Source: Clostridia bacterium (GTDB lineage: Bacteria; Bacillota; Clostridia; Oscillospirales; CAG-272). Taken from it: a DNA stretch of 64,000 nucleotides. Each line of letters begins with the position of its first letter. Within the stretch, counting starts at the first letter, position 1. Under the pieces are notes generated by a model. That model was not told the DNA's origin. It saw only the letters and a program-made list of their open reading frames with translations, and searched no databases. Positions 17,681 through 62,724 of the stretch are shown in pieces. The stretch covers positions 7,175-71,174 of the forward strand of contig JAFVSI010000015.1 in NCBI GenBank assembly GCA_017503865.1, given 5' to 3'. Made by a program: the position numbers and the translations under genes.

Positions 17681-17696
17681 TTACAAACTTCCCTTC

Positions 17697-44528: not shown

Positions 44529-44554
44529 AAGGCGATGACATAAGTCATCGCCTT
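44529..44554. terminator. Bidirectional terminator between eno and carB-dapF
   Basis: aaggcgatgac / gtcatcgcctt stem with ataa loop. A run upstream and T run downstream. Confidence 0.85.
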
Positions 44555-44560
44555 AATTTT

Positions 44561-47500
44561 TTATATTTCAAATTCTCCGTTATAGATAAGCTCTGCGTTT
44601 CCTGTGAGAGTTACGCACTCTTCAGTGTAGTTTACTATAAGGTCACCGCCGCGAAGCTTAACGGTAATGTCTTCGCCCATACGGCAGAATCCGTTTTCTA
44701 CAGCCGCAACAACAGCCGCACAAGCACCGGTACCGCAACCGTAGGTCTCACCGTTACCACGCTCCCAAACACGCATTTTTATTGTGTTGTCGTTTACAAC
44801 ACGGATAAACTCGGTGTTAATTCTCTCGGGGAATTCCTTTGCACTCTCAAAGAGAGGTCCAACTCGCTTTACGTAAACACCGTCAACGTAATCCGAGAAT
44901 ACAACACAGTGAGGATTACCCATTGATACACAAGTTATCTTATAATCCTTTCCGCCAACGCTGAAGGGGTAGTTAATAACCTTATCTGCCTTAATGGTTG
45001 TAGGAATATCCTTAGAGAAGATACTTGCCTTACCCATATTTACACTTACAGATGAAACCTTACCGTTTCTCGTGTAGAGCTTGAGCTGCTTAACACCGCT
45101 TCCTGTCTCAACAGTAATATCTTCTTTATCAACTATATGATTATCATAGAGATATTTACCTACGCAACGGATACAGTTACCTGCCATCTTACCTTCACTA
45201 CCGTCAAGGTTGAAAATACGCATCTTTGCATCGGCAACCTCAGACTTTTCAATAAGAACAAGACCGTAAGCACCAACGCCGTAGTGTCTATTGCAAAGAG
45301 TGAGACAAAGCGACTCGGGACAAGTGATTTTACCGTCAAAGTTTTCAATGAAGATATAGTCGTCCCCTGTTCCGTGCATTTTTGCAAACTTAAACTTACG
45401 AGGCTCGCTTCTCATATCGTTGATGTCAACAAGCTCAGTATTCTGCTGATTAAATCTACTTGCGATAACGTCAGCGAGAGCATTTGCAGTATCAAGAGAC
45501 GTGAGACAAGCAACTGAGTGCTGAAGAGCCTTTCTGTGAAGTGCTATATAATCGTCAAGAGTTGTGCTGAAAAGCTCGCCCGTATAAACAATGTAGCTTA
45601 TCTTTCCTTCCTCAATAAGCTCGTAGGCATCCTTACTGTCATTTATGCCTCTGACAGTTCTAACGTCAACGCCAAGTCCTTCAATAGCTCTTGCAGTATC
45701 CTTAGTAGCGTATATCTTCATTCCAAGGTCGTCAAGCTTCTTGGCAAGACTAACGATCTCTTTAAGGTCGTGTTCGTCAACACTGATAAATACACCGACG
45801 TCAGATCCTGAAGAAGGAGCTTTTATCTTAAATCCTGCCGAGGTCATACCTTTGAATATTGCCTCGTTAAGCGTAGCACCAAGACCGAGAACCTCTCCTG
45901 TTGACTTCATCTCAGGACCGAGATAGGAGTTAGCGTCGGTAAGCTTTTCGAACGAAAATACGGGAACCTTGACCGCATAGTAAGGCGGAGTCTTATAAAG
46001 ACCAGTTCCGTAGCCGAGATCCTTAAGCGGCTCACCTATCATTACACGTGTTGCAAGGTCAACCATAGGAACACCCGTAACCTTACTGATGTAAGGAATT
46101 GTTCTTGAAGCACGGGGGTTAACCTCAATTACGTAAAGCTCGTTTCTCCAAATAAGGTACTGAATATTTACAAGTCCCTTTGTACCGAGAGAAAGTGCGA
46201 GCTGTGTTGAAGACTCTATAAGAGTTTCAAGCATCTTATCATTAAGATTGTAAGGGGGATATACAGCAATAGAGTCACCGCTGTGAACTCCTGCACGCTC
46301 GATATGCTGCATAACACCGGGAATAAGAACGTCCTTGCCGTCGGAAATTACGTCAACCTCAAGCTCCATTCCCTTCATATACTTATCAACGAGAACGGGA
46401 TTTTCAATTCCAGTTGAAAGTATTCTCTTCATATATGCTCTGACCTCTGTATCGTTATACACGATAGACATATTCTGTCCACCGATAACGTAAGAGGGAC
46501 GAAGAAGCACGGGGTAACCGATATCATTACCGGCCTTAATGGCTTCCTCAGTAGTCATAACACTTGTACCAACGGGACGCTTGATGGAGAATCTTTCAAG
46601 AAGTGCATCAAACTTTTCTCTATCCTCAGCTGTATCAATTCCCTCAGCAGAAGTACCGAGAATTTTGATTCCGTTGTCATCAAGGAATTTTGTAAGCTTT
46701 ATAGCTGTCTGTCCACCAAAGGCAACAACGACGCCAATAGGCTTCTCAATTTCAATGATGTTCATAACGTCCTCAGACGTAAGAGGCTCGAAATACAAGC
46801 GGTCTGCAGTATCATAGTCGGTAGATACAGTCTCAGGGTTGTTGTTTACGATAACAACATCATAACCGAGACGCTTTAGAGCCCAAACGCAGTGAACAGA
46901 AGAATAGTCAAACTCAATTCCCTGTCCTATACGGATAGGACCTGAACCGAGAACAAGAATAGTAGGCTTACCGCTACGTGCAAACGTGCGGGATTCGCAA
47001 TCCTTGTCGTACGTCGAATAAAAGTAAGGCGTCTTAGCATCAAACTCAGCAGCACAGGTATCAACCATTTTATATGACGCACGGAGCTTAGGAAGCTCAT
47101 CGCAACCGCCCATCTTGATAAGTGCCTTGTCGGGATAACCGAGATTTTTACCCTTCTTATACTCTTCAAGACCGATTCCGTTTTCGACAACGTCACGCTC
47201 GTACTGAACAAGGTTCATAAGCTTATGGAGGAACCAAGGATCTATTCTTGTTATCTCGTGAATGGTCTCAATTTCTACACCGCTTTTAAGTGCCTCAAAA
47301 ACAGTAAAGAGTCTGCGGTCGTCGGAAATCTTAAGACGCTCCATAAGAGGCTTGTCCGAAATAGGAGCAGCATTGAGAGTATCAAGAGAAATTTCAGCTC
47401 CTCGTACCGCCTTCATAATAGCCTGCTCGAAGCTTGTACCGATGGACATTACTTCACCTGTAGCCTTCATCTGCGTACCAAGCATACGGCTCGCACCCGT

Positions 47501-48595
47501 GAACTTTTCAAAAGGCCACTTAGGCATCTTTACTACAACGTAGTCGATAGCAGGCTCAAAGCAAGCACAAGTTTTACCCGTAATATCGTTTGTAATTTCA
47601 TCAAGTGTATAACCAAGAGCGATCTTCGAGGTTATCTTTGCAATAGGATAGCCGGTTGCTTTACTTGCAAGAGCTGACGAACGTGAAACACGAGGGTTAA
47701 CCTCTATAACTGCATACTCAAAGCTATCAGGATTGAGAGCAAACTGACAGTTACATCCACCAACTATCTCAAGTGCACAAATAATCTCGAGAGCCGCTGT
47801 ACGAAGCATCTGGTATTCCTTAGGGGAAAGTGTAAGAGCGGGAGCTACGACTATTGAGTCGCCCGTATGTACTCCAACAGGGTCGAAGTTTTCCATACTA
47901 CAAACCGCGATACAGTTTCCTGCAGAGTCACGCATAGTCTCAAATTCAATTTCTTTCCAGCCGTAAATATATCTCTCAACGAGAATCTGACTGATAGGCG
48001 ATGCATCAAGTCCCGTCTTTGCGACGAGCTTAAGCTCCTCGGGATTGTTAGCAACTCCGCCGCCTGCACCGCCGAGTGTGAAAGCAGGACGAATAATAAC
48101 GGGATAACCAATCTTTCCTGCAATAACGAGAGCTGTGTGAACGTCGTTAGCTATATCAGAAGGAATACAAGGCTGACCTATGGCTTCCATTGTATCCTTG
48201 AACATCTGTCTATCCTCTGCTTTGTCAATCGCACGGGCATCAGTTCCAAGAAGTCTTACGTTATGCGATTCAAGGAAGCCCTCGTGAGAAAGCTGCATGG
48301 CAATTGTAAGACCTGTTTGACCGCCAAGACCAGCAAGAATGCTGTCGGGCTTTTCTTTTTCAATAATTCTCTTAACAGTTTCAACCGTAAGAGGCTCGAG
48401 ATATATCTCATCAGCGAGAGCACTGTCTGTCATAATGGTAGCGGGGTTGGAGTTTACAAGAACAACGTTTACACCGGCATCCTTAAGAACTCTACAAGCC
48501 TGAGCTCCCGCGTAGTCAAACTCTGCCGCCTGACCGATAACGATAGGGCCTGAACCAATTACAAGAACTTTTTTAATATCTTTATTAAGCGGCAT
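44561..48595 (-). CDS. carB: Carbamoyl-phosphate synthase large subunit fused in frame to diaminopimelate epimerase
   Basis: 1344 aa. Residues 1 to about 1066 (45398..48595) are a complete CarB: two ATP-grasp halves, oligomerisation domain and MGS-like domain. The last 278 aa (44564..45397) are a complete DapF (KMHGTGDDY, GNCIRC, SMGNPH, ERGNGETYGCGTGA). No stop or frameshift at the junction. Confidence 0.92.
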   Translation of the reverse strand: MPLNKDIKKVLVIGSGPIVIGQAAEFDYAGAQACRVLKDAGVNVVLVNSNPATIMTDSALADEIYLEPLTVETVKRIIEKEKPDSILAGLGGQTGLTIAMQLSHEGFLESHNVRLLGTDARAIDKAEDRQMFKDTMEAIGQPCIPSDIANDVHTALVIAGKIGYPVIIRPAFTLGGAGGGVANNPEELKLVAKTGLDASPISQILVERYIYGWKEIEFETMRDSAGNCIAVCSMENFDPVGVHTGDSIVVAPALTLSPKEYQMLRTAALEIICALEIVGGCNCQFALNPDSFEYAVIEVNPRVSRSSALASKATGYPIAKITSKIALGYTLDEITNDITGKTCACFEPAIDYVVVKMPKWPFEKFTGASRMLGTQMKATGEVMSIGTSFEQAIMKAVRGAEISLDTLNAAPISDKPLMERLKISDDRRLFTVFEALKSGVEIETIHEITRIDPWFLHKLMNLVQYERDVVENGIGLEEYKKGKNLGYPDKALIKMGGCDELPKLRASYKMVDTCAAEFDAKTPYFYSTYDKDCESRTFARSGKPTILVLGSGPIRIGQGIEFDYSSVHCVWALKRLGYDVVIVNNNPETVSTDYDTADRLYFEPLTSEDVMNIIEIEKPIGVVVAFGGQTAIKLTKFLDDNGIKILGTSAEGIDTAEDREKFDALLERFSIKRPVGTSVMTTEEAIKAGNDIGYPVLLRPSYVIGGQNMSIVYNDTEVRAYMKRILSTGIENPVLVDKYMKGMELEVDVISDGKDVLIPGVMQHIERAGVHSGDSIAVYPPYNLNDKMLETLIESSTQLALSLGTKGLVNIQYLIWRNELYVIEVNPRASRTIPYISKVTGVPMVDLATRVMIGEPLKDLGYGTGLYKTPPYYAVKVPVFSFEKLTDANSYLGPEMKSTGEVLGLGATLNEAIFKGMTSAGFKIKAPSSGSDVGVFISVDEHDLKEIVSLAKKLDDLGMKIYATKDTARAIEGLGVDVRTVRGINDSKDAYELIEEGKISYIVYTGELFSTTLDDYIALHRKALQHSVACLTSLDTANALADVIASRFNQQNTELVDINDMRSEPRKFKFAKMHGTGDDYIFIENFDGKITCPESLCLTLCNRHYGVGAYGLVLIEKSEVADAKMRIFNLDGSEGKMAGNCIRCVGKYLYDNHIVDKEDITVETGSGVKQLKLYTRNGKVSSVSVNMGKASIFSKDIPTTIKADKVINYPFSVGGKDYKITCVSMGNPHCVVFSDYVDGVYVKRVGPLFESAKEFPERINTEFIRVVNDNTIKMRVWERGNGETYGCGTGACAAVVAAVENGFCRMGEDITVKLRGGDLIVNYTEECVTLTGNAELIYNGEFEI

Positions 48596-49653
48596 TAGTT
48601 TTCTCCTTCCATCATTTTGATAAATCTGTCATAGAGGAAAAGTGTTCCTCTCGCACCCTCCCAGTTATCTGGAAGGAACTGAACGGAAAACGCACCAAAC
48701 TCGGGGTAATCTATTCCCTCACAACTCTTATCGTTGACGTTTATAAAGCTTACCACTCCGTGATTTGTGCTGTCAGAAGCAACAGCAAATCCGTGATTTT
48801 GTGCTGTTATAAACGTTCTTGTTCCATCTGTTTCACGTACAGGCTGATTTGAGCCTCTGTGACCGTATTTGAGCTTATATGTCATACCTCCGTCAGCAAG
48901 AGCCAAAAGCTCGTGACCGAGACCAATTGCAAATATAGGCTTCTTACCGAGAAGTGCCTTTACCTCTTCAATATAGAAAACGTTTTCAGAGGGATCTCCG
49001 GGTCCGTTTGAAAGAAGAATTCCATCGGGCTCGGTTGCAAGAATTTCATCAGCGGTAAAAGTTGCAGGAACTACTGTAACTGCACAGCCCTTAGCCTGAA
49101 GCGACTTAATAGCATCGCTTACAGAGCCATAGTTTACAACTGTAACGTTCAGCTTTTCGTCTCCTTCAGCAAACTTCTGAGTTTGGGCACTTGTTACCGA
49201 TGCAACTGCATCAACGATTTTAAAATTCTTGATTTCCTCAAAATCCTTAGGGATCTCACTGCAGATACAAGCATTCATAGTTCCGTTTTCACGGAGTATC
49301 TTTGTTATTTGTCTTGTATCAACTCCGCAAATTCCGGGAATGTTGTTGTTTTTAAGGAAGGTGTCAAGATCGTACTGACTTCTGAAATTTGAAGGCTTTT
49401 CACAGTATTCACGCACCACATATCCGCCAAGTGCACACTTTCCAACGAAATCCTCTTCAATAACTCCGTAATTTCCTATCATAGGAAACGTCTGCATAAC
49501 TATTTGTCCGTAGTATGCGGGGTCTGTAAGAGTTTCAATGTAACCAACTGCCTGTGTGTTAAAAACGAGCTCGCCGATTCCCTTGCACTCTGCACCAAAG
49601 GAATAACCTTCAAATACGTGTCCGTCTTCAAGTATTAAATAAGCTTTTTTCAT
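48595..49653 (-). CDS. carA: Carbamoyl-phosphate synthase small subunit with a degenerate glutaminase active site
   Basis: 352 aa. Conserved CarA blocks present (LLSNGPGDP, ITAQNHGFAV). The nucleophile motif reads AIGLGHE instead of GICLGHQ. The HPE motif reads FLPD. TAATG overlap with carB. Confidence 0.9.
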   Translation of the reverse strand: MKKAYLILEDGHVFEGYSFGAECKGIGELVFNTQAVGYIETLTDPAYYGQIVMQTFPMIGNYGVIEEDFVGKCALGGYVVREYCEKPSNFRSQYDLDTFLKNNNIPGICGVDTRQITKILRENGTMNACICSEIPKDFEEIKNFKIVDAVASVTSAQTQKFAEGDEKLNVTVVNYGSVSDAIKSLQAKGCAVTVVPATFTADEILATEPDGILLSNGPGDPSENVFYIEEVKALLGKKPIFAIGLGHELLALADGGMTYKLKYGHRGSNQPVRETDGTRTFITAQNHGFAVASDSTNHGVVSFINVNDKSCEGIDYPEFGAFSVQFLPDNWEGARGTLFLYDRFIKMMEGEN

Positions 49654-49672
49654 ATTAACTCTTTCACCTCAC

Positions 49673-50575
49673 TTATGCAAGACATTTAACAAGTACAGCC
49701 TTTTGAGCGTGGAGACGGTTTTCCGCCTCGTCAAAGATTTCTGCAGCGTGCTCTTCGAACACCTCAGCAGTTATCTCCTCTTCTCTATGTGCGGGCAAGC
49801 AGTGGAGCACCATAGCATCCTTTGCCGCAACGTTCATAACGTCACGGTTTATCTGATAGCCCTTGAATATTTCACGACGCATAGCAGCCTCATCCTCTTG
49901 TCCCATAGACGCCCATACGTCCGTGTAAAGAACGTCTGCATCCTTTGCAGCCTCAAGAACGTTATCGGTACAAGTAAATCTACCGGTTGCCTCTGCCCAT
50001 TTCATTATTTCAGCATCGGGAGCATAGTCCTTAGGACAAGCCACCGAAACTGTCATTCCCATCTTTATTCCGCCAACTATAAGCGAGTTTGTCATATTAT
50101 TACCATCGCCAATATAGCAAAGCTTCTTTCCGCTTATCTCTCCCTTATACTCTCTGATAGTCATAAGGTCAGCAAGTACCTGACAAGGGTGACAGTAATC
50201 TGTCAAACCGTTGATAACGGGTATCTGTCCGCAAGAAGCAAGGGACTCGACCTCTTCCTGAGCAAAAGTTCTTATCATAATACCGTCAAGGTAACGGGAA
50301 AGAACTCTCGCGGTATCCTGCACGGGCTCACCTCTACCTATCTGAAGGTCTCTTGAACTAAGAAAGAGTGCCGCTCCACCAAGGTCGTACATTCCGACTT
50401 CAAAGGATACACGCGTTCTTGTCGAGGATTTTTCAAATATCATTCCAAGCGTCTTACCCTTAAGAATGTGGTGCGTTATACCGTTTTTCTTCTCATATTT
50501 GAGCTTATCTGCGGTATCAAGTATCTCATCGATCTCCTCTTTGGAAAGATCCATAAGCTTTAACAAATGCTTCAT
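49673..50575 (-). CDS. argF: Ornithine carbamoyltransferase
   Basis: STRTRVSFE, HPCQVLAD, DVWASMG and HCLPA motifs. Confidence 0.95.
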   Translation of the reverse strand: MKHLLKLMDLSKEEIDEILDTADKLKYEKKNGITHHILKGKTLGMIFEKSSTRTRVSFEVGMYDLGGAALFLSSRDLQIGRGEPVQDTARVLSRYLDGIMIRTFAQEEVESLASCGQIPVINGLTDYCHPCQVLADLMTIREYKGEISGKKLCYIGDGNNMTNSLIVGGIKMGMTVSVACPKDYAPDAEIMKWAEATGRFTCTDNVLEAAKDADVLYTDVWASMGQEDEAAMRREIFKGYQINRDVMNVAAKDAMVLHCLPAHREEEITAEVFEEHAAEIFDEAENRLHAQKAVLVKCLA

Positions 50576-50605
50576 TTCGCAAGTATCTCCTTCAATATTT
50601 TCTAT

Positions 50606-51979
50606 TCAATTTAATTCGTTTCTTATGTAAGCAACCTGTGCCTCAACCGATTCTACCGAAGTACCCCCCTCGGAAATTCTCTTTGAAACACACGTTTCGA
50701 GAGAGATCTCACCGTAAAGATCTTCCTCAAAGAGTTCACTGTGCTCTCTATATTTGTCAAGTGAAAGCTCGTCAAGAACACAGTTCTCTGAAATACACTG
50801 TGCAACTATCTGTCCGACTATCTTATACGCGCTTCTGAAGGGCATTCCCTTCTTTGCAAGATAATCCGCAAGGTCGGTAGCATTTATAAATCCGCCCTGA
50901 GCGGCACGGTACATATTGTCAGCCTTGACCTTCATGGTCCTTACCATAGGACAAAATACCTTGAGGCACATAATAACAGTATCGACCGAGTCGAATATTG
51001 CCTCTTTATCTTCTTGCATATCCTTGTTGTAGGCAAGGGGTAAACCCTTAAGTGCGACAAGAAGTGCTATAAGATCACCGTATACTCTTCCCGTTTTGCC
51101 TCGCACAAGCTCTGCCATATCCGAATTCTTCTTTTGAGGCATTATAGAAGAACCTGTTGTATATGAATCATCAAGCTCTACAAACTTGAATTCCCAGCTT
51201 GACCAAAGGATTATTTCCTCGGAAAACCTTGAAAGATGCATCATAAGGATTGAAAATGCACTCATAAGCTCAAGACAAAAATCCCTGTCAGAAACTCCGT
51301 CAATGCTATTCATACAAATTCCGTCAAAGGAAAGCTTTTCGGCAACCATTCTTCTGTCGGTATTATAAGTTGTACCCGCAAGTGCACAAGAGCCGAGAGG
51401 TGAGTAATTCATACGTGCAACCGCGTCCTTGATTCTCGAGACGTCACGCGAAAGCATCATAGCATAAGCCATAAGCTGATGACCGAAGGTGATAGGTTGT
51501 GCCCTTTGAAGATGCGTATATCCGGGCATGATGACCGTCTTGTTCTCTTCAGCTTTATCAGCCACTGTAAGAGCGAGCTCCTTTATAAGCTCAACTATTT
51601 CCTCGCATTTGTCTCTAAGATAAAGTCTTATGTCGAGGGCAACCTGGTCGTTTCTGCTGCGAGCTGTATGGAGCTTTTTACCTGTGTCTCCAATACGTTT
51701 TGTAAGCTCGCTTTCAACGAACATATGAATATCCTCAGCAGCCATATCTATTTCAAGTTTTCCACTGTTGATATCGTCAAGTATGGACGTAAGTCCGTCA
51801 ATTATTTCGGCAAGATCGCTTTCTGTAATGATACCCTGTTTTGCAAGCATCGAAGCGTGTGCAATAGAGCCTTTTATGTCCTGAGCATACATTCTGCTGT
51901 CAAAATGTATCGACGAATTGAAATCGTCAGCAAAGCTGTCAAGCTCTTTTAGAAACCTTCCCGACCACATTTTTTCCAT
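50606..51979 (-). CDS. argH: Argininosuccinate lyase
   Basis: 457 aa. Fumarate-lyase signature GSSIMPQKKN. MWSGRF N-terminus. Confidence 0.96.
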   Translation of the reverse strand: MEKMWSGRFLKELDSFADDFNSSIHFDSRMYAQDIKGSIAHASMLAKQGIITESDLAEIIDGLTSILDDINSGKLEIDMAAEDIHMFVESELTKRIGDTGKKLHTARSRNDQVALDIRLYLRDKCEEIVELIKELALTVADKAEENKTVIMPGYTHLQRAQPITFGHQLMAYAMMLSRDVSRIKDAVARMNYSPLGSCALAGTTYNTDRRMVAEKLSFDGICMNSIDGVSDRDFCLELMSAFSILMMHLSRFSEEIILWSSWEFKFVELDDSYTTGSSIMPQKKNSDMAELVRGKTGRVYGDLIALLVALKGLPLAYNKDMQEDKEAIFDSVDTVIMCLKVFCPMVRTMKVKADNMYRAAQGGFINATDLADYLAKKGMPFRSAYKIVGQIVAQCISENCVLDELSLDKYREHSELFEEDLYGEISLETCVSKRISEGGTSVESVEAQVAYIRNELN

Positions 51980-52042
51980 AGTTATTTATACACAGTTTGC
52001 CCACCACAAATATTGCGGTAGGCAAACTTCTCCTTATAGGGA

Positions 52043-53278
52043 TTACTTTTGTTTATTTTTATTAGCCTGATTTACCTGAGCCTGAACCTTTATAGGAAGT
52101 CCAAACAAATTGATAAATCCTGTTGCATCAGCTTGGTTGTAAACGTGATCCTCACCGAAGGTAGCTATCTCTTCGGAATAAAGTGAGTAATCACTCCAAG
52201 CACCTGCCTTGATCATATTACCCTTGTAAAGCTTAATACGAACCTTACCGGTAACGTTCTCCTGAGTCTTTTCAACAAATGCCGAAAGAGCCTCACGAAG
52301 AGGTGTGAACCACTGACCGTTATAAACGAGGTCAGCAAATGTTACGCTAAGCTCGTCCTTCTTGTGAGCTGTATACTTATCAAGACAAAGAGTCTCAAGA
52401 TAGTTATGTGCGAAGTAAAGTATAGCTCCGCCGGGAGTCTCGTAAACTCCGCGACACTTCATACCGACAAGACGGTTCTCAACTATATCAAGAAGTCCTA
52501 TACCGTTTGCTCCACCGACCTTGTTAAGCTCAAGAATAATGTCCTTTGCACTCATCTTCTGATCGTTAAACGCAACGGGACGTCCTTTTTCAAACTCAAG
52601 GGTTATATAGGTGGGAACGTCGGGAGCATCAATAGGAGAAACACCCATCTCAAGAAAACCGGGCTTTTCGTAAAGAGGCTCGTTTCCTGCATCCTCAAGA
52701 TCAAGTCCCTCGTGACTGAGATGCCACATATTTTTATCCTTTGAGTAGTTAGTCTCACGGTTTATCTTAAGAGGAACGTTGTGTGCCTCAGCATATTCGA
52801 TCTCTTCCTCACGGGATTTGATATCCCACTCACGCCAAGGAGCGATAATAGGCATATCGGGAGCAAATGCCTTAATAGTAAGCTCGAAACGAACTTGGTC
52901 GTTACCCTTACCTGTACAACCGTGACAAATTGCGTCAGCACCCTCAGCCTCAGCAATCTCAACGATACGCTTTGCGATTACAGGACGTGCAAAGGAAGTA
53001 CCGAGAAGATACTCCTCGTATTTAGCACCTGCCATTACGGTAGGAATAATATAATCGTCAACGAACTCGTTAGTAAGGTCCTCTATGTAACACTTTGAAG
53101 CACCGGTCTTGATAGCCTTCTCTTCAAGTCCCTCAAGCTCGTCGCTCTGACCAACGTTACCGCTTACAGCGATAACCTCACAATTGTTGTAATTCTCCTT
53201 GAGCCACGGAATAATAATGGACGTATCAAGTCCGCCCGAGTACGCAAGAACAACTTTTTTGATATCTTTCTTTTCCAT
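52043..53278 (-). CDS. argG: Argininosuccinate synthase
   Basis: [12 protein letters not shown]-binding motif. Start moved to ATG 53278 (MEKKDIKK), behind a GAGAGGTG RBS. The ORF-track start at 53308 lies inside the operator. Confidence 0.95.
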
Positions 53279-53293
53279 TTTTAACACCTCTCG

Positions 53294-53328
53294 TGAATAT
53301 ATATTCAAATTACGTGAATATTATACAT
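53294..53328. promoter_or_regulatory. Tandem ARG boxes (ArgR/AhrC operator)
   Basis: Perfect palindrome TGAATATATATTCA (53294..53307) and a second, weaker box TGAATATTATACAT (53315..53328), 21 bp apart. Matches the TGAAT-W4-ATTCA core. Confidence 0.7.
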
Positions 53329-53348
53329 CTTATACATTGATTTGTCAA
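53320..53348 (-). promoter_or_regulatory. Consensus promoter of the arg operon
   Basis: Minus strand TTGACA (53343..53348), 17-nt spacer, TATAAT (53320..53325). The -10 box is overlapped by ARG box 2. Confidence 0.7.
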
Positions 53349-53645
53349 TGCTTTAAACAACAAAAATATTATAAATATTTAACGTTTTAATGTCACAATT
53401 GCACAAAGCACCAATGGGTTTCAACTTCACTAAAGAGATTATGCAAAAAACCGCGAATAAATATTTATAAATATTCATAATTTTGGACAAAACAAAGACT
53501 CTATCAACGCCCATAAATCCAAAATATATTATACTTCTTTTTTACTAAAATTGCAATAGTATTGTGATATTTTTTTACGATTATTATATTGAAAATCTAT
53601 TTTTTTCCTTTACGTATTTTAAAATTTATATTTTTGATAAAAATA

Positions 53646-53674
53646 GTGACACAAGTATTATTTTGTGGTATAAT
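53646..53674 (+). promoter_or_regulatory. Promoter of ribF
   Basis: GTGACA (53646..53651), 17-nt spacer, TATAAT (53669..53674) with upstream TGTGG. Confidence 0.5.
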
Positions 53675-53702
53675 ATACAAAAACTTTGAAAGGAGAACGG
53701 AA

Positions 53703-54638
53703 GTGATCGTATCAACCGAACTGAACTACACACAAAGAGAACCTTGCGTTGTTGCTCTTGGTTGCTTTGACGGTGTGCATTTAGGACACACCGCTGTTAT
53801 AAATCAAGCAAAAGAAAAGGCTGATTCGCTTAACGTTCCCCTCTGTATTTGGAGCTTTGCAGAGCCCCCAAAGCGTTTTTATGCAAAAGAAACCGTCCAT
53901 CTTCTTTCAAGTGCAAAGTCAAAGGCAGAAATTATCGAAATGCTCGGTGCTGACGTTTATATATCTGTAAAATTCAATGCGAATATTGCCGCTGTCACAG
54001 CAGAAGATTTTTTTAATAATATTTTAATTAAAAACCTGAATTGTGTGGCTGTTGTGTGCGGATATAATTTCACCTTTGGAAAGGGCGGTTGCGGCAACGC
54101 AGAGCTTCTATCCTTCCTTTGCAAGAGCTATGGTATTGATTTCATTCCCGTACAGTCTGTAAACGTTGACGGTGAAGCTGTCAGCTCCTCAAGAATCAGG
54201 GGTTATATTCTTAACGCAGAAATTGAAAGAGCCAACAAGCTTTTAGGCAGACCGTATTCAATCGTGGCAGAGATCATAGACGGGAAACATCTTGGACGCA
54301 ATCTCGGCTTCCCCACCATCAATCAAAGAATTGACGAGAACCTTTGTAAGCCCGCAAACGGAGTTTATCTTACGAGAGTAACCTTAGATGACGCTTGCTA
54401 CTTCGGTATAACAAACGTAGGCACTCAACCAACGGTGTGCGGTCGTGACATTGTAGTTGAAACTAATATTTTTGATATTTCTGCCAACCTTTACGGCAAG
54501 GAAGCTACCGTTGAATTTCTGAAATTCATTCGTCCCGAGCGAAAATTCAACACTATTGATGAATTAAAGACACAAGTAAATAGGGATATAGCAACAGCAA
54601 AAGCTATGGCTGCTGAATATAAAAAGAGCACAGAATAA
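53703..54638 (+). CDS. ribF: Bifunctional riboflavin kinase / FMN adenylyltransferase
   Basis: ALGCFDGVHLGH nucleotidyltransferase motif. C-terminal kinase domain (GFPTIN, GVYLT, E.NIFD). GTG 53703 follows an AAAGGAGAA RBS. The upstream part of the ORF is AT-rich nonsense. Confidence 0.93.
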   Translation: MIVSTELNYTQREPCVVALGCFDGVHLGHTAVINQAKEKADSLNVPLCIWSFAEPPKRFYAKETVHLLSSAKSKAEIIEMLGADVYISVKFNANIAAVTAEDFFNNILIKNLNCVAVVCGYNFTFGKGGCGNAELLSFLCKSYGIDFIPVQSVNVDGEAVSSSRIRGYILNAEIERANKLLGRPYSIVAEIIDGKHLGRNLGFPTINQRIDENLCKPANGVYLTRVTLDDACYFGITNVGTQPTVCGRDIVVETNIFDISANLYGKEATVEFLKFIRPERKFNTIDELKTQVNRDIATAKAMAAEYKKSTE

Positions 54639-54656
54639 ATCTCTGTGCTCTTTTTT
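54621..54656. terminator. Terminator overlapping the ribF stop
   Basis: aaaaagagcacag / ctgtgctcttttt stem. Confidence 0.8.
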
Positions 54657-54658
54657 GA

Positions 54659-54961
54659 TTATGCAAGTGCGTGCTCAAGCCAAACGACACCAATGCTGAA
54701 AGCATCGTAAAGACCTTCCTTAGCTCCCTGCTTTATGATCTTGTTAGGATCTTTAGAATCAATGACCTGAACGAATATCTTGTCAGGTACCTGATTACCG
54801 CCTTCTTCCTTATACGACATTATCTCGAGAATGAGAATACATTTTTCCGTCTTATCTCCATAGCAAATGGTATTTCCCTCACGCACAAGCGGTCTGTCCT
54901 TGTACATAAGATATTTGCCTTCAACCAAATTAGTTATATCTGCCACAACTCGTACCTCCAT
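54659..54961 (-). CDS. Hypothetical small protein (95-100 aa)
   Basis: Protein-like composition, unlike its plus-strand mirror ORF. GGAGGT sits at codons 1-3, so GTG 54946 is an alternative start. No family recognised. Confidence 0.5.
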   Translation of the reverse strand: MEVRVVADITNLVEGKYLMYKDRPLVREGNTICYGDKTEKCILILEIMSYKEEGGNQVPDKIFVQVIDSKDPNKIIKQGAKEGLYDAFSIGVVWLEHALA

Positions 54962-55015
54962 ATATTTTCATAAGTATTATAAAACAAAAACAGTAAATTG
55001 TCAAGAACTTCAAGC

Positions 55016-56824
55016 TCAGGAAAGATATTTTCTAAGTGCTTCAATAAGCTTGTCATTGTCTTCGGTATTTCTAATTGCAATTCGCATAAATTCTTTACCG
55101 CTACCGCCAAGCTTTTGAGTAAGATCCTTGACAAGAATATCATCGTTAATGAGAAGATTTTTTGTTAACTCCTCAGCACTTATTCCGCAAAGCTCTATAA
55201 GAAGATAGTTAGCTTCGGACGGAAAAACGCGTATTGATTTAAACGATGACAAAAGTTCTACGAAGCGACGTCGCTCTTCCTTAAATTTCTTTAGAGCCAA
55301 GACGTAGTCGCTCTTATATTTTTCAGCAATCTGCATATAGAATTCACCGAAGGAATTTATATTCCAAATTGCAACGTCACGCTTAATGTCAGCAATCAGC
55401 TTTGCATCACCCGATGCAAGAACACCGAGACGAAGTCCCGGAACTCCGTATGACTTCGAGATGCTCTTAACAACAACAAGGTGAGGATTTTTCGCAAGTA
55501 TATTGCTATCAATAAGAGTAGAATTTTCTTCGGAAAAATCAACGAAGGACTCGTCGATAATGAGCTTGATTCCCATTTCTGCAGCCCAATCGATAAGTCG
55601 AAGAACATCAGCTCTCGGTATGTAGTTGCCCGTAGGATTGTCGGGATTTACAATTACAAGATTTGATACGTCCTTGTCACAAAAATAGGAAATAACGTCA
55701 TCAGCGTTATAGCGGAATCCATCTGTTTCGGGCATCATAACAACGCTTTCTTCCTTCAAAAAGCGGTTAGGATACTCCTCAAAGGTCGGACGGATAAAGC
55801 CTGTCTTGCCCACAAGCGACTCCATCATTGCTTTTATAAGCTCAGCCGCACCGTTGCCAACGACAATCTCCTCAGGCTGAACGCCAAAATTCTTAGCCGC
55901 AAGCAAGGAATTGACTCTCATCCCCGAAGGATATTCACAAAGAAGAGTCTCAAAGCTGTTCTTTATCTCCCCTATCATTCTCTTAGGCGGATAATAGGGA
56001 TTTACAAGATAGCAAAAATCGATAAGCTTGGGGTAACGCCAATAACCGCCAAAACGTGACTGAAGAAGCTTCACCTTCTCGTGAGGGTCTGTCGTAAACA
56101 TTGAGGACGCAATATCAAGGTCCTGAACGTCATCTATCTCATACCACTTGTGAGAGGAAAGTCGCTTTGCACGTATCTCGGTTTCGTCAAGCATAGTGAT
56201 AACACGAAGCACCTGCTCATAATACTCGTTATTGCCAAGTGCACTCGAATATGCCTTAAGGAAGGGCACGTAGCAATTCTTCGAGAAATTTTTGCTGAAC
56301 TTATATATGTTTACAGTCTTATAGTACTCGTCAACCTCGTCATAATCGAGTTTTTTGCCCGATATAAAGGCATCTATAGTATCGTCAGCTGAAATTTTTA
56401 CGCAAGTACCGTCCATCCAAGCCTCATACTTGTCAACAAGGGCGAGAGTGGGGCGAGGATCTGAAACAAGCTCTTCAATTACTCCGTCCTCAAAGATAAG
56501 GTCGGACTCAAAGAGAAGAGTGTCGTCCTCGCAAAGATAATCACTTGCAAGATAAAGCGAGTATATATTATTGGTCTTATCGTAAATGGGATTTTCAACG
56601 TAAACGATAGGAGTTTTAACGTCAAGCGTTGAAATATAATCAATAAGGTGCTGGGAACGGTATCCGACAACAATTACGATTTTGTCAAGATTTTGCTTGT
56701 CAAGCTGAGAGAGCATACGCTCGATAAGCGTAACCCCGTTGACTTTGACCATACATTTAGTATTGTCTCGGGTAAACTCTTTAAGACGCTTACCCATCCC
56801 CGCTGCCAAAATAATTGCGTTCAT
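55016..56824 (-). CDS. Fusion of LicC-like nucleotidyl(cytidylyl)transferase and class I/II PLP aminotransferase/decarboxylase (HisC/CobD-like)
   Basis: N-terminal 235 aa: AIILAAGMGKRL, NNIYSLYLA, WYEIDDVQDL (compare pneumococcal LicC). C-terminal 360 aa: DFCYLVNPYYPP, VNPDNPTGNY, SISKSYGVPGLRLG (PLP lysine). Confidence 0.85.
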   Translation of the reverse strand: MNAIILAAGMGKRLKEFTRDNTKCMVKVNGVTLIERMLSQLDKQNLDKIVIVVGYRSQHLIDYISTLDVKTPIVYVENPIYDKTNNIYSLYLASDYLCEDDTLLFESDLIFEDGVIEELVSDPRPTLALVDKYEAWMDGTCVKISADDTIDAFISGKKLDYDEVDEYYKTVNIYKFSKNFSKNCYVPFLKAYSSALGNNEYYEQVLRVITMLDETEIRAKRLSSHKWYEIDDVQDLDIASSMFTTDPHEKVKLLQSRFGGYWRYPKLIDFCYLVNPYYPPKRMIGEIKNSFETLLCEYPSGMRVNSLLAAKNFGVQPEEIVVGNGAAELIKAMMESLVGKTGFIRPTFEEYPNRFLKEESVVMMPETDGFRYNADDVISYFCDKDVSNLVIVNPDNPTGNYIPRADVLRLIDWAAEMGIKLIIDESFVDFSEENSTLIDSNILAKNPHLVVVKSISKSYGVPGLRLGVLASGDAKLIADIKRDVAIWNINSFGEFYMQIAEKYKSDYVLALKKFKEERRRFVELLSSFKSIRVFPSEANYLLIELCGISAEELTKNLLINDDILVKDLTQKLGGSGKEFMRIAIRNTEDNDKLIEALRKYLS

Positions 56825-56880
56825 TTATCAATTTCCTTGTCTTTTAATAAAATTTCGTTTAGACATAGTTATACTTTTAA

Positions 56881-56909
56881 AGTATAGCACAATATTTAGC
56901 ATTTGTCAA
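56881..56909 (-). promoter_or_regulatory. Promoter of the LicC-aminotransferase fusion gene
   Basis: Minus strand TTGACA (56904..56909), 17-nt spacer, TATACT (56881..56886). A 7-1-7 palindrome ATACTTT-T-AAAGTAT (56871..56885) overlaps the -10. Confidence 0.55.
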
Positions 56910-56910
56910 T

Positions 56911-56944
56911 AAAAAAGGAGACGTTCAAAATCGTCTCCTTTTTT
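56911..56944 (-). terminator. Terminator after ddh
   Basis: aaaaaaggagacg / cgtctcctttttt stem. Confidence 0.85.
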
Positions 56945-56945
56945 A

Positions 56946-57926
56946 TCAAAGCAATTTCTTGCGAAGCTCTTCACCACTCATCTGTGAGAGATATGCGGGA
57001 GCTACGTCAAGGACAGTCTTGCAGCCCTTTTGACCTTCCTTGTTCATTCTATATGCCGCACGTGCATATGCAACGAGGACGGACGAGGTAAACTCGGGGT
57101 TAGAGTCAAGCTTCAAGCTGTACTCGATAACGTGTTTATGCTCTTTGTTAAAGCCCGTCACACCGCTTCTTATCACAACGCCGCCGTGAGGAATGCCCGA
57201 ATGGTCACGGCGAAGCTCATCAAGAGAAATGAAATGAACAGTAGTATCGTAATCGGCAAAGTAGTTAGGCATCGTCTTTATCTCGTTCTCAATTCTTGCA
57301 AGATCTGCACCCTCTTCTGCAACAACGAAACACTCTCTTGTATGTTTCTCTCTTGCACTAAGCGTAGGAGCGTCACCGCTTCTAACTGCCTCAAGTGCCT
57401 TTTCTACGGGAATGGTATATTGTCTTGCATCAACAACGCCCTCTATTCTTCTGATAGCGTCGGAATGTCCCTGACTTACACCCTTACCCCAAAAAGTATA
57501 GTCGTTTCCTTCGGGGAGAATTGCTCCCGCGTACATTCTGTTAAGTGAGAACATACCGGGGTCCCAACCAACAGAAATAATAGCTACCTTTCCGCTCTCA
57601 CCTGCCGCCTTGTCAACGTTTGCAAAATGCTCGGGTATTCTTGCGTGGGTATCAAAGCTATCAATTACGTTAAAATATTTTACGTACTCGGGCGTCTGAA
57701 CAGGCAGGTCGGTCGCACTGCCACCGCAAATAATAAGAACGTCTATCATATCGGTAAGATTTTTAATATCGTCAATATGGTAAACACCAACGCCCTCGGT
57801 GGCGATCTTCAAGCTTTCGGGAGGTCTTCTTGTAACAACTGCAACAAGCTCCATGTCGCTGTTTTGTCTTATAGCAGCCTCAACGCCACGTCCGAGATTT
57901 CCATAACCTAAAATTCCTACTCGCAT
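56946..57926 (-). CDS. ddh: meso-Diaminopimelate D-dehydrogenase
   Basis: 326 aa, colinear with Corynebacterium Ddh: GYGNLGR, GWDPGMFS, WG.G.SQGHSDA.RR, MPNYF, PHGG. Confidence 0.92.
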   Translation of the reverse strand: MRVGILGYGNLGRGVEAAIRQNSDMELVAVVTRRPPESLKIATEGVGVYHIDDIKNLTDMIDVLIICGGSATDLPVQTPEYVKYFNVIDSFDTHARIPEHFANVDKAAGESGKVAIISVGWDPGMFSLNRMYAGAILPEGNDYTFWGKGVSQGHSDAIRRIEGVVDARQYTIPVEKALEAVRSGDAPTLSAREKHTRECFVVAEEGADLARIENEIKTMPNYFADYDTTVHFISLDELRRDHSGIPHGGVVIRSGVTGFNKEHKHVIEYSLKLDSNPEFTSSVLVAYARAAYRMNKEGQKGCKTVLDVAPAYLSQMSGEELRKKLL

Positions 57927-58162
57927 ACAAAATTCTCCTTGTTAGAACACTAAAACTAATAGAATAATTATATTACAAATCTTTTTCAATGTCAACCGAT
58001 TCAAGCCTATAAATATATAAAAACAAAGATTTTTTCCAATTTCATTCGGTATATTTTGTTTTTCTCGATTTAAAATAATTACATATGTTAAGAAACGTTA
58101 ATAATTTTCTCAGCAAAATATTAAGATTTTGGTTATATTATTTTTTTACTTAGGGGGAGCTT

Positions 58163-59296
58163 ATGAAAGAGAGATCAAAAAAACTTATTGATATTATTTT
58201 TTGCATTATATTGTTGATCTTTTCACTGTCGCTAATGTTTTCTTTGTTATTTTCAAAAGAAAAGAGCTTTTCAGAAAAGGAAAACCGAGTATTAAAAACA
58301 AGACCAAGCGTTAAGATAGATAGAATTTTAGACGGACGGTTTTTTAGTGAATTCTCAAAATACTGTGCCGATCAGTTCCCCCTCAGAGAATTTTTCACAG
58401 GCATTTCAAGCTTTATCGACCTCTCTCTCGGCAGAATAGAAGCAAACGGAATAATTGTCATTAACAACAAAGTGCTAATCCCACGCAACGACTATAGCAA
58501 TAACCAAATTCTTCACGACAATTTAAAGGCAATAGCAACTTTCATAGAGAGCAACAAATCAAACGGTCTTCCCTCGTATATTGTCGTTGCTCCTCGCAGC
58601 CTTGACGTTAACAAAGAAAAGCTACCAATCTGTTTTTCAAACGATTATGGCACAGCCGAATATGATGCATTATACAATACAATTAAAAAACAAAATCTTA
58701 TTGACACACTACCTTGTCTGACAAAAAATGTAAAAGAAAAAAACTTCTATAACACCGATCATCACTGGACTACACACGGTGCGTATATTGCATATCTTGA
58801 AATTACAAATAGGCTTGGTATAGAGCCATATCCAATCGATTTTTTCAATGTTGATATTGTTAGCACCGACTTTCTCGGCACGTCATTTTCAAGATCGGGA
58901 TTGTACTCTTTTGATGATAAGGATACTATTGTGCTATACCGATATAAGAATGACGATAAAATAATTATAACAAGAAACGGCAAAGAAAGACCGCTATACG
59001 ATTTTTCTGCACTCGAACACAGTGATAAATATAGAATCTTTCTCGGCGGAAACACCGATATTTTAGAAATTCGCAATCAAGAAGCGAAGCCTAAGCTACT
59101 CATCATAAAGGATAGCTTTGCAAACTCTGTCATTCCGTTTCTTACCCTGCATTTTGATATTGATGTAATAGATTTGAGATATTATAAAAATTCGCTCTCA
59201 AGTTATATTTCAAGTAATGACTTTGAAGCTGTTTTGCTTTTGTTCGGGATTGATACCCTCGCAACCGAGACTTCCTGCATCAACATAAGAAAATAA
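58163..59296 (+). CDS. DHHW family protein (AlgX/AlgJ-like SGNH O-acyltransferase fold), membrane anchored
   Basis: N-terminal TM helix. Eponymous motif NTDHHWTTHGAY. Confidence 0.85.
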   Translation: MKERSKKLIDIIFCIILLIFSLSLMFSLLFSKEKSFSEKENRVLKTRPSVKIDRILDGRFFSEFSKYCADQFPLREFFTGISSFIDLSLGRIEANGIIVINNKVLIPRNDYSNNQILHDNLKAIATFIESNKSNGLPSYIVVAPRSLDVNKEKLPICFSNDYGTAEYDALYNTIKKQNLIDTLPCLTKNVKEKNFYNTDHHWTTHGAYIAYLEITNRLGIEPYPIDFFNVDIVSTDFLGTSFSRSGLYSFDDKDTIVLYRYKNDDKIIITRNGKERPLYDFSALEHSDKYRIFLGGNTDILEIRNQEAKPKLLIIKDSFANSVIPFLTLHFDIDVIDLRYYKNSLSSYISSNDFEAVLLLFGIDTLATETSCINIRK

Positions 59297-59367
59297 ATGT
59301 AAATTTACTTGTAAATATAAAGATTTCGTGATATACTATAAGCAATATTTTTTGTGTGGATATTTTT

Positions 59368-59994
59368 ATGATTAAAGTTGTATTTGAAAATTCAAATTTT
59401 ATAGTTTGCGAAAAAGAGGCGGGGCTTATCAGTGAATTTTCCCCTACCTCTCCAATTTCATTGCCTTCCTTACTTTGCAAGCAGCTGTCCTTGGGTGAGC
59501 TTTTTACAGTTCACAGGCTTGACAAAGAGGTTTCGGGGCTGATTGTTTACGCCAAAAACGCACAAACGGCAGCAGCAATTTCACGACAGATAAGCGAGGG
59601 GCTTTTTCAGAAAGAATACCTCGCAATAGTTTCGGGAAAACTAAGCTCAACCTCCGGCAAGCTTTGCGACCTATTATATCACGACAAGCAAAAAAACAAG
59701 ACCTACGTTGTAAAAAAGAAAAGAGCCGGTGTTAAAGAAGCCGTCCTTGAATACAGTGTAGTCGATTACGATGCGGTAAACGATACGTCAAAGCTAAAGA
59801 TAAAGTTGCTGACAGGTAGAACTCATCAAATACGCGTTCAATTTGCCTCACGGGGACACTCGATTTTAGGCGACCGCAAATACGGTTCTCCGCTAAACGT
59901 TAAGCCTATCCGTCTTCATTCGCACTCAATTTCGTTTTTCGATTCGGACAATAAAGAAAACGTCTCCTTCACTTCTCTGCCAAGCTGGTTTTAA
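59368..59994 (+). CDS. RluA-family pseudouridine synthase (no S4 domain)
   Basis: Catalytic HRLDKEVSGLIVYAKN and GRTHQIRVQ motifs. ATG 59368 preferred; GTG 59356 possible. Confidence 0.88.
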   Translation: MIKVVFENSNFIVCEKEAGLISEFSPTSPISLPSLLCKQLSLGELFTVHRLDKEVSGLIVYAKNAQTAAAISRQISEGLFQKEYLAIVSGKLSSTSGKLCDLLYHDKQKNKTYVVKKKRAGVKEAVLEYSVVDYDAVNDTSKLKIKLLTGRTHQIRVQFASRGHSILGDRKYGSPLNVKPIRLHSHSISFFDSDNKENVSFTSLPSWF

Positions 59995-60064
59995 TGCTTT
60001 AGTTGACTTTTACGGCAATTCATGATAGAATATTCAATACGTTTTATCTATTACTGAGGTACAT

Positions 60065-61303: not shown

Positions 61304-62184
61304 AAAAACATATAAGTAAGATTTTATTTATTTCATCAATGGCAATATTCGGTACCATTGCCATATTCGTAAAAAACATCCCTATTCCATCGGGAGAAAT
61401 AGCCCTATATAGAGCTATACTTGCTTCAATTCTTATTACAGTCTTTCTCTTAATCAGAAAAAAGCCTATTCATTTAAGGGAATTTAAAAAATCTGTGCCG
61501 ATCCTCTTGGTTTCTGGTGCGGCAATGGGTTTCAATTGGATATTTTTATTTGAAGCATATAATTATACAAGTGTTTCCACAGCTACATTAAGCTATTATT
61601 TTGCCCCAATTCTCGTAACTGTTGTCTCACCTATTCTTTTTAAAGAAAGGCTCACTATAAAGCAGATAATTTGCTTTATAATGTCAACACTCGGTATAGT
61701 TCTTATCACCGACCTTGCCGACTTACATTCAGAGTCAACCAGCCTTTTGGGAATAGGTCTTGGACTTACGGCTGCCGTCTTATATGCAACTGTCATAGTA
61801 CTAAACAAATTTCTCAAAGAAATTGACGGCATCACAAGAACACTGCTCCAGTTTTTGTCCGCAATATGTGTTCTTATCCCTTACGTGCTTTTAACAGGCG
61901 GTCTAAATCTTAATCTGCTTACTCCAATTAGCATTGGAGCACTTATTACGGTAGGACTTATTCACACAGGCATTACTTACTGTATCTATTTTTCAACAAT
62001 GAAGGACCTTGACGGACAATCAGTGGCAATTTTAAGCTACATAGACCCATTGGTTGCGATATTTGTTTCAGTGTTTGTTCTCGGCGAAACAATGAGCATA
62101 TTGCAAATTGCGGGTGCCGTTTTAATACTCGGCTTTACCTTGCTAAATGAAATTCCCATTTCATTGCCACAAAAGAATAAATAA
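61300..62184 (+). CDS. DMT superfamily (EamA) transporter
   Basis: 294 aa, 10 TM in two 5-TM halves. ATGA overlap with the upstream gene. Confidence 0.85.
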   Translation: MKKHISKILFISSMAIFGTIAIFVKNIPIPSGEIALYRAILASILITVFLLIRKKPIHLREFKKSVPILLVSGAAMGFNWIFLFEAYNYTSVSTATLSYYFAPILVTVVSPILFKERLTIKQIICFIMSTLGIVLITDLADLHSESTSLLGIGLGLTAAVLYATVIVLNKFLKEIDGITRTLLQFLSAICVLIPYVLLTGGLNLNLLTPISIGALITVGLIHTGITYCIYFSTMKDLDGQSVAILSYIDPLVAIFVSVFVLGETMSILQIAGAVLILGFTLLNEIPISLPQKNK

Positions 62185-62217
62185 AAAGAAGCGGTACAAA
62201 AAGTACCGCTTCTTTTT
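62183..62217. terminator. Bidirectional terminator between the EamA gene and nrdR
   Basis: 15-bp stem aaaaagaagcggtac / gtaccgcttcttttt. Confidence 0.85.
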
Positions 62218-62662: not shown

Positions 62663-62695
62663 AATTAAAAAGAGTCCTTTCGAAAAATTTTCTTT

Positions 62696-62724
62696 ATTAT
62701 AGCATAAAATTACGGAAATGTAAA
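62696..62724 (-). promoter_or_regulatory. Promoter of nrdR
   Basis: Minus strand TTTACA (62719..62724), 17-nt spacer, TATAAT (62696..62701). Confidence 0.5.

Follow-up and report, generated by a model that had tools for sequence, protein, structure and literature searches.

The carB::dapF locus

The 64,000-nucleotide stretch of DNA analysed here (the window) comes from a gut-dwelling Clostridia bacterium of the GTDB lineage Oscillospirales, CAG-272 (GenBank assembly GCA_017503865.1, contig JAFVSI010000015.1, positions 7,175 to 71,174 of the forward strand). It carries on its minus strand an open reading frame (ORF) in which carB, the gene for the large subunit of carbamoyl-phosphate synthetase (CPS), continues into a sequence resembling dapF, the gene for diaminopimelate (DAP) epimerase. 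The fusion is the last cistron of argG-argH-argF-carA-carB, and its parts are the following (aa, amino acids).

44561..48595, minus strand: carB::dapF-like fusion ORF, 1344 aa plus stop, no internal stop
45455..48595, minus strand: complete CarB part, aa 1-1047, with two ATP-grasp synthetase halves, oligomerisation domain and MGS-like allosteric domain
45500..45760, minus strand: MGS-like allosteric domain, aa 946-1032 (Pfam)
45392..45454, minus strand: junction or linker, aa 1048-1068 (about 20 aa), ...FNQQNTELVDINDMRSEPRKF, in a single frame
44564..45391, minus strand: DapF-fold domain of the "A-type", aa 1069-1344, without the first catalytic cysteine (TIGR00652)

The fusion ORF at 44561..48595 is real and consists of a complete CarB, a linker and a full-length DapF-fold domain. 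The CarB part scores 1444 bits against PRK05294 over aa 1-1047 (cut-off 599) and 1410 bits against TIGR01369 (cut-off 1027), and it qualifies as a full-length CarB by its Pfam composition, in which the D1/D2 preATP-grasp/ATP-grasp units occur twice together with the D3 oligomerisation domain and MGS. The DapF-like domain reaches 274 bits against TIGR00652 over aa 1069-1342 (equivalog cut-off 114.65), with PF01678 matched twice. Between them the junction reads ...FNQQNTELVDINDMRSEPRKFKFAKMHGTGDDY in an uninterrupted single frame. An earlier interpretation made from the letters of this DNA alone (the sequence-only reading) had CarB running in frame into DapF, and the stop-free ORF of 1344 aa and the profile matches to both parts bear this out. 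It had also seen no Shine-Dalgarno sequence before the internal Met; indeed neither a Shine-Dalgarno-like nor a promoter-like signal was found ahead of either internal Met near the junction, and separate internal expression of the DapF-like domain was rejected on this ground.

Compared with E. coli CarB (1JDB/1BXR) and the arginine-specific CarB of Bacillus, aa 1-1047 of the window protein match over their full length, with carA adjacent, whereas the approximately 300 C-terminal residues in the DapF fold are additional.

Active site of the DapF-like domain

Active-site positions were assigned from HMMER alignments to four solved DapFs (2OTN, 9MRO, 3EJX and 5HA4), in which GKMAGNCIRC of the window pairs with GKSCGNGLRC of B. 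anthracis 2OTN, EMCGNGIRC of the cyanobacterial 9MRO, EMCGNGVRC of Arabidopsis 3EJX and EQCGNGVRC of Acinetobacter 5HA4. Three codons are located as follows.

45182..45184, minus strand: GCA, Ala1138, aligned with catalytic Cys73 (H. influenzae numbering; Cys83 in C. glutamicum), motif xCGNGxRC
45362..45364, minus strand: GAC, Asp1078, aligned with substrate-binding Asn11 (HGxGNDF; Asn15 in C. glutamicum)
44735..44737, minus strand: TGC, Cys1287, second catalytic cysteine, retained (Cys217 in H. influenzae, Cys221 in C. glutamicum)

The sequence-only reading took both catalytic cysteines to be present, which the alignment contradicts, as the cysteine of AGNCIRC is Cys1141, three residues beyond the catalytic position, and the catalytic position itself is Ala1138. 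This alanine is no base-calling slip, since all three bases of the codon would have to change to turn GCA into TGY. Of the "complete, apparently active DapF" once proposed, the completeness stands, by TIGR00652 and by the fold described below, while the activity is not supported, the Cys73 equivalent being alanine; the motifs SMGNPH, ERGNGET and YGCGTGA listed in its favour are all three in place.

Cysteine is almost always missing from the relatives as well. Among the fused homologues, 114 of 120 of which matched the motif, the Cys73 column holds Ala in 103, Gly in nine and Ser and Arg in one each, and never Cys; among the best 80 loci from GTDB genomes it holds Ala in 70, Gly in six and Tyr, Thr, Ser and Cys in one each; counted over the 78 readable loci, Ala or Gly occupies 76 and Cys one. 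The same column is Cys in 113 of the 123 motif-matching sequences drawn from 150 representatives at 50% identity, mostly stand-alone DapFs with 41-51% identity to the domain. The second catalytic cysteine is present in all 117 homologues that match the second motif, and in 100% of the A-type alignment. Two candidates for a compensating base were considered and rejected, the residue being variable within the clade in either case: Cys or Ser at the +3 position of Cys1141 (in the homologues Ser 49, Cys 26, Ala 18, Asn 12, Gly 3, Val 3, Pro 2, Leu 1), and Asp at the Asn11 position (Asp 61% and Asn 39% in the A-type clade). No conserved residue able to replace the missing base was found across the A-type clade.

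The remainder of the cleft is kept in the window domain, including Asn64, Gly74-Asn75, Asn157/His159 (GNPH), Asn190 (NTEF), Glu208-Arg209 (ERG), Cys217-Gly-Thr and, among these DapF residues, Thr219. Seven of the eight members of the DAP-binding set of C. glutamicum (N15, N74, N85, N159, N194, E212, R213 and T223) are present, the exception being N15, which is Asp1078. At 11 ligand-binding or catalytic columns the mean frequency of the top residue is 0.988, compared with 0.72 over the domain as a whole.

In C. glutamicum DapF, C83A, C221A and N15A are each almost inactive, and so are N74A, N85A, N159A, N194A, E212A, R213A and T223A (PMC5296763). The C73A/C217A double mutant of E. coli DapF is inactive, as is the monomeric Y268A mutant (PMC6061791). 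By analogy with these mutants of both species, conversion of LL-DAP to meso-DAP is predicted to be lost here. Given the lost catalytic cysteine, the domain is therefore probably a retained "dead-enzyme" module and not a working epimerase.

The first helix of the DapF-like domain also carries a clade-specific motif with three cysteines, I-T-C-P-E-S-L-C-x-x-L-C (aa 1092-1101, within 45080-45310), in which C1092 is conserved in 92% and C1101 in 85% of the A-type clade, neither being conserved in ordinary DapFs. This motif could serve at an interface, in redox chemistry or in metal binding.

Fold, selection and decay

An AlphaFold2 model of the last 415 aa, built with 62 homologues, has a mean predicted local distance difference test score (pLDDT) of 89.2, exceeding 90 over most of the DapF-like domain, and a predicted template-modelling score (pTM) of 0.82. 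Searched with Foldseek, its top matches are DapF structures, the best being 9MRO with a TM-score of 0.91 and a root-mean-square deviation of 1.9 A, and trans-3-hydroxy-L-proline dehydratases are among the remote structural relatives. As modelled, the domain has the full DapF fold, the same two-lobed architecture as DapF (EC 5.1.1.7) in 2OTN, 9MRO, 1BWZ/2GKE of H. influenzae and 5M47 of C. glutamicum, with 41-43% identity to 2OTN and 9MRO.

Nei-Gojobori estimates of the ratio of nonsynonymous to synonymous substitution rates (dN/dS), made on 14 pairs of closely related fusion genes, lie at 0.06-0.24 in the DapF-like domain, compared with 0.02-0.17 in the CarB core. In most pairs the domain is thus evolving about two to three times faster than the CarB core, and from the range of 0.06-0.24 we conclude that it is kept by purifying selection. 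An essential catalytic residue lost clade-wide from a domain that stays full-length and under purifying selection is what defines a pseudoenzyme, and the A-type domain shows each of these features.

In some lineages decay has gone further. In Mobilibacterium timonense, C-G-N has become Y-D-N and CGTG has become CGSA. Five GTDB loci (L063, L065, L068, L069 and L072) have lost Asn190 and Arg209 (N190F/Y, R209K), most of them Asn157 as well (N157I/K), and two (L068 and L072) also Glu208 (E208G/D). All of these, M. timonense included, keep a full-length domain, and L060 too is among the loci whose full-length domains show eroded binding residues.

Spread of the fusion

One genome per GTDB species was scanned with an alignment of the junction as query, which gave more than 599 pattern matches, and tblastn confirmed 450 relatives. 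The fusion is conserved in at least 80 related species: the junction is spanned in all of the best 80 of the 450 confirmed loci, and wherever the contig is long enough the fusion ORF is uninterrupted, at 1325-1427 aa (L019 has 1512 aa owing to an upstream extension). With the last 415 aa (MGS and DapF) as query, the best 120 protein hits have identities of 58-84%, and nearly all of them have PF02142 together with PF01678; all of these 120, largely metagenomic protein fragments, belong to the fusion form.

Independent assemblies agree. The European Nucleotide Archive (ENA) scaffold ERZ28653715 is 100% identical to positions 46946..64000 of the window (17 kb), and the 1344-aa gene is called there too; an exact look-up of the 1344-aa protein had given no match, the identical gene being reached later through the neighbouring ddh. 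In a related species (L091/L092), at 83% nucleotide identity and 95.6% aa identity over 1187 aa, the junction likewise has no stop. Continuity of the junction in independent assemblies and related genomes, on which the sequence-only reading had made its claim depend, is thereby established in the ENA scaffold, the related species and the best 80 GTDB loci alike.

Carriers are almost all metagenome-assembled genomes (MAGs) from gut or rumen, labelled Oscillospiraceae, Clostridia, Eubacteriales, Ruminococcus sp., Oscillibacter sp., Anaerotruncus sp. and Christensenellaceae. They also include Anaerovoracaceae, and the isolates M. timonense and Baileyella intestinalis; the fusion is found in the isolate M. 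timonense Marseille-P3194T, whose 90% protein cluster includes the B. intestinalis protein.

The matches listed by the protein search are fragments of less than 740 aa, though the same collection includes full-length fusions, and a search seeded with an Anaerotruncus-like fusion listed only unnamed fragments of less than 740 aa. A naturally split CarB, which recurrent lengths of 449, 501 and 636 aa might indicate, was rejected: these are gene-caller starts at a conserved Met on truncated contigs or, in L001, the result of an in-frame TAG. At NCBI the full-length fusions (e.g., WP_077391742.1 and WP_320593197.1) are named "carbamoyl-phosphate synthase large subunit", and fusion fragments at contig ends "diaminopimelate epimerase, partial".

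Two irregular members were encountered. In locus L001 (GCA_054290425.1, JAZPGL010000014.1, 7900-8060) an in-frame TAG within carB replaces Lys in the conserved YYAVKVPVF, so that carB::dapF is called as 878 + 449 aa; the TAG may be a nonsense mutation or an error of sequencing, or the gene may be a pseudogene in that MAG. Downstream of the fusion, the same locus has a gene for a Mur ligase. The ENA protein P0052 (722 aa, 10 member sequences) joins the N-terminal approximately 230 aa of CarA directly to the last approximately 500 aa of CarB::DapF-like; either a large deletion in frame or a chimeric assembly would account for it.

Fusions that keep both cysteines

A second class of CarB-DapF fusion, here called C-type, keeps both catalytic cysteines and is represented by proteins P0123 (MGI6497870.1, 1349 aa, from an Oscillospiraceae MAG), P0124, P0125 and P0126 and by locus L080. 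They share with the window protein and its A-type relatives the domain order, many clade-specific residues and the junction peptide NTELVDINxMR (NTEL[IV]DINxMR), which is kept in both classes, and they have approximately 52% identity to the window protein over the last 415 aa. Unlike the window protein, C-type fusions keep MCGN[AG]xRC as well as the canonical allosteric motif TSxKGR...IRRKA, and in the one C-type context examined, that of P0123 (assemblies L082 and L083), the gene forms a lone carA-carB pair outside an arg operon. C-type fusions are plausibly true bifunctional enzymes.

Neighbour-joining on the DapF domain recovers a monophyletic A-type clade in 95-98 of 100 bootstraps, and P0123-P0126 are its nearest neighbours in the best tree. 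P0129, a fragment of 579 aa, has the allosteric motif of the C-type but Ala in place of Cys73, and its place in the tree is elsewhere; it probably represents a second, independent loss of Cys73.

The arginine operon and the allosteric site

Upstream and downstream of the fusion, the operon and its control elements are arranged as follows.

44529..44554: bidirectional intrinsic terminator directly after the fusion stop, common to the convergent eno and the operon end
48595..49653, minus strand: carA (CPS small subunit, glutaminase), whose stop overlaps the carB start, translationally coupled
49673..50575, minus strand: argF (ornithine carbamoyltransferase)
50606..51979, minus strand: argH
52043..53278, minus strand: argG, likely ATG start at 53278 (411-aa call in L084)
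53294..53307: perfect palindromic ARG box TGAATATATATTCA; nowhere else in the 64-kb window is there a match with zero mismatches
about 53317..53345: consensus sigma-A-type promoter TTGACA-17-TATAAT
53454..53477: two overlapping imperfect ARG boxes, about 150 bp upstream of the perfect box

The TTG start listed for argG at 53308 is an over-extension that overlaps the operator. As the perfect ARG box sits between the consensus promoter and the argG ribosome-binding site, an ArgR-controlled operon, as assumed in the sequence-only reading, is supported by sequence. In A-type loci with enough upstream sequence the order is mostly argF-carA-carB, argG-argH often lying upstream or downstream, and carA is adjacent to carB in the related loci too. 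In Bacillus, the arginine-specific CPS is likewise encoded in an arg operon under an ARG box.

The allosteric domain of this CPS has itself diverged. We take K954, T974, T977, K993, N1015 and T1017 of E. coli CarB to be the effector-site residues for uridine and inosine monophosphate (UMP/IMP), from the IMP complex (Thoden et al., 1999). Aligned to E. coli CarB, the window protein has L, T, T, G, Y and G at these positions, replacing the phosphate- and ribose-binding residues K954, K993, N1015 and T1017, and the nucleotide-effector positions are variable across the A-type clade. In P0124, the one C-type protein alignable to E. coli CarB, Lys954 and Lys993 are both kept. On this alignment the window clade has lost the nucleotide-effector site of the CarB allosteric domain, including its UMP/IMP-binding lysines; such a site marks a regulated CPS subtype and does not define the CarB family.

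Routes to meso-DAP

The window encodes a further enzyme of DAP metabolism, 8.4 kb from the fusion.

56946..57926, minus strand: ddh, meso-diaminopimelate D-dehydrogenase (TIGR01921 446 bits, cut-off 180.6; PF16654)

Ddh converts tetrahydrodipicolinate directly to meso-DAP. A Ddh variant of the lysine and peptidoglycan-precursor pathway without the DapF step has been described (PMC9026213). Because the Ddh of the window makes meso-DAP without DapF, DapF would be dispensable and loss of the epimerase tolerable here. In the second species (L091/L092) ddh is on the same contig as an A-type fusion, in the same ddh ... argG-argH-argF-carA-carB::dapF arrangement; this synteny is lost beyond the genus of the window, and co-occurrence of ddh and fusion is established in two species only. 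A second DapF was found neither in the window nor within 10 kb on either side of the fusion in 80 loci, and the nearest stand-alone DapF clusters are named Erysipelotrichales and Lachnospiraceae.

DapF is replaceable in several ways, since E. coli dapF nulls grow normally, the usable read-out being DAP secretion while growth is uninformative (bioRxiv 10.1101/2024.10.14.618325), and since a non-homologous DapF2, dependent on pyridoxal phosphate, exists (bioRxiv 10.1101/2024.10.14.618325; PMC9026213). By the curated gene tables, dapF adjoins dapL in R. bromii L2-63 and A. colihominis (Ashniev et al., 2022).

Beside ddh, at 55016-56824 on the minus strand, lies a 602-aa fusion of a sugar-phosphate nucleotidyltransferase (PF00483) with a CobD/HisC-like class I/II aminotransferase, which is conserved beside ddh in the related contigs L084, L087 and L091. 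Elsewhere on the minus strand of the window, positions 12801-19028 hold a 2-oxoacid dehydrogenase complex cluster comprising a single 827-aa E1, in which alpha and beta are fused, along with E3, E2 and a lipoate-protein ligase. At positions 23494-25784, a 527-aa DUF1538 membrane protein precedes a protein of 236 aa whose C-terminal domain is P-II-like.

What the DapF-like domain may do

We favour, at about an even chance, the reading that the domain is an epimerase-dead but still ligand-binding module of DapF origin, with a regulatory or assembly role on an ArgR-controlled, arginine-dedicated CPS. According to this scenario, loss of the stop codon between adjacent genes would have produced an ancestral bifunctional CarB-DapF, in which the conserved Met of INxMR may be the old DapF start. 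In one lineage the CPS would then have joined the arg operon, the epimerase chemistry would have become dispensable, and Cys73 would have been lost while the domain was retained. To judge from its residues, the cleft may still bind a DAP-like diamino-dicarboxylate, and the domain would serve CPS as a non-catalytic regulatory or assembly module, acting through the adjoining allosteric domain and probably through DapF-type dimerisation. As a fallback the sequence-only reading had offered a new substrate or a regulatory role, which agrees with the evidence more closely than its main claim of an active epimerase.

There are precedents for such a fate. In the DapF/proline-racemase superfamily, trans-3-hydroxy-L-proline dehydratase has likewise lost one catalytic cysteine and kept the fold, although the replacement in the window clade is Ala or Gly and not Thr as in one-Cys relatives of proline racemase. 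E. coli DapF activates RppH, a non-catalytic, protein-regulating role (PMC6061791); in the window clade the protein partner is covalently fused. Compared with an ordinary DapF, the window domain is not free-standing but tied covalently to CPS and placed behind an arginine-repressed promoter.

Several points weigh against this reading. The coupling of the domain to CPS regulation is something that we purely infer. The union of A-type and C-type fusions in the DapF-domain tree is weakly supported (25-30 of 100 bootstraps). Near-perfect retention of Cys217 and the cleft exceeds what a scaffold needs and would also fit residual or new one-base chemistry. The search for a second DapF covered the window and the flanks of the fusion; a canonical dapF, a dapL, a dapF2 or a C-type paralogue may exist elsewhere in genomes of the clade, and such a paralogue would point to duplication followed by degeneration. 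If DapL were present in the genome without another epimerase, the domain would have to work.

A more specific version is that the domain senses a DAP isomer and replaces the lost UMP/IMP site in the allosteric control of an arginine-dedicated CPS, which we consider unlikely.

That the domain is instead a neofunctionalised one-base enzyme, in which Cys1287 drives another reaction on a DAP-like substrate, e.g., abstraction of the alpha-proton followed by beta-elimination, is in our judgement quite improbable. The model for it would be the relatives of proline racemase that turned into 3-hydroxyproline dehydratases on losing one Cys. Conservation of Cys217 at 100% and of the cleft residues at approximately 99% despite the loss of Cys73 speaks for it, as do the dehydratases among the remote Foldseek relatives. 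Single-Cys mutants of H. influenzae DapF, in work attributed to Koo and colleagues in 2000, reportedly still eliminate hydrogen fluoride from 3-fluoro-DAP. However, the operon, made up of arg and car genes only, offers no candidate substrate or pathway partner, several lineages with a degraded cleft keep the domain, and nothing ties such chemistry to CPS.

We would give as little credence to a pure scaffold, i.e., a domain that binds nothing and on which CPS folding or dimer/tetramer assembly has come to depend by entrenchment after fusion. In E. coli CPS the allosteric domain takes part in tetramer contacts. The DapF-like domain directly follows the allosteric domain, the two-domain fragment is modelled with a pTM of 0.82, suggestive of a defined packing, and lineages with degraded binding residues keep the domain at full length; moreover, DapF is an obligate dimer (PMC6061791). 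A scaffold nevertheless leaves unexplained why, in most of the clade, 11 cleft residues are conserved at 0.988 against a domain average of 0.72, and because the cleft is so well conserved we favour a ligand-binding role over a mere scaffold.

A genuinely bifunctional enzyme, with an active DapF whose dosage is tied to arginine repression, we hold to be very doubtful for the window. It would account for the TIGR00652 score well over the equivalog cut-off, the DapF fold, the retention of Cys217 and of almost all DAP-binding residues, and the purifying selection, and sister fusions with both cysteines do exist, for which a bifunctional reading is probably right. Yet the clade has Ala or Gly throughout at the Cys73 position with no conserved substitute base, the Asn11 position is Asp or Asn, the corresponding single Cys-to-Ala and N15A mutants of C. 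glutamicum DapF are almost inactive, some lineages also lack N157, N190 and R209 while keeping the domain, and with Ddh encoded in the same genome DapF is not needed. An artefact, in which a sequencing or assembly error would have merged two genes or the tail would be a decaying pseudogene, is already refuted: the junction runs uninterrupted through about 80 species and through independent assemblies, dN/dS in the domain is far under 1, and the junction peptide is conserved. The in-frame TAG of L001 is its one point of support, yet this lies inside carB and away from the junction.

Implications

No publication on a CPS-DapF fusion was found in the searchable open-access literature, in agreement with the sequence-only reading, which knew of no description of this architecture. 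CPS with a pseudo-DapF appendage is a very common form of a central enzyme that apparently has gone unreported. Calls of the lysine and meso-DAP pathway for such MAGs can be misled because the domain passes the TIGR00652 equivalog threshold, and automated lysine and peptidoglycan reconstructions of gut MAGs may count a DapF that probably does not work. Intact fusions, fusions that lost one catalytic cysteine with the cleft frozen, and fusions with further cleft decay form a natural series, which is useful material on the origin and retention of pseudoenzyme domains. If the retained, epimerase-dead module were indeed a DAP sensor, synthesis of carbamoyl phosphate and arginine would be tuned to the DAP/lysine branch, and a dead enzyme would have supplied a new allosteric input and a cross-talk between cell-wall and lysine metabolism on one side and arginine metabolism on the other.

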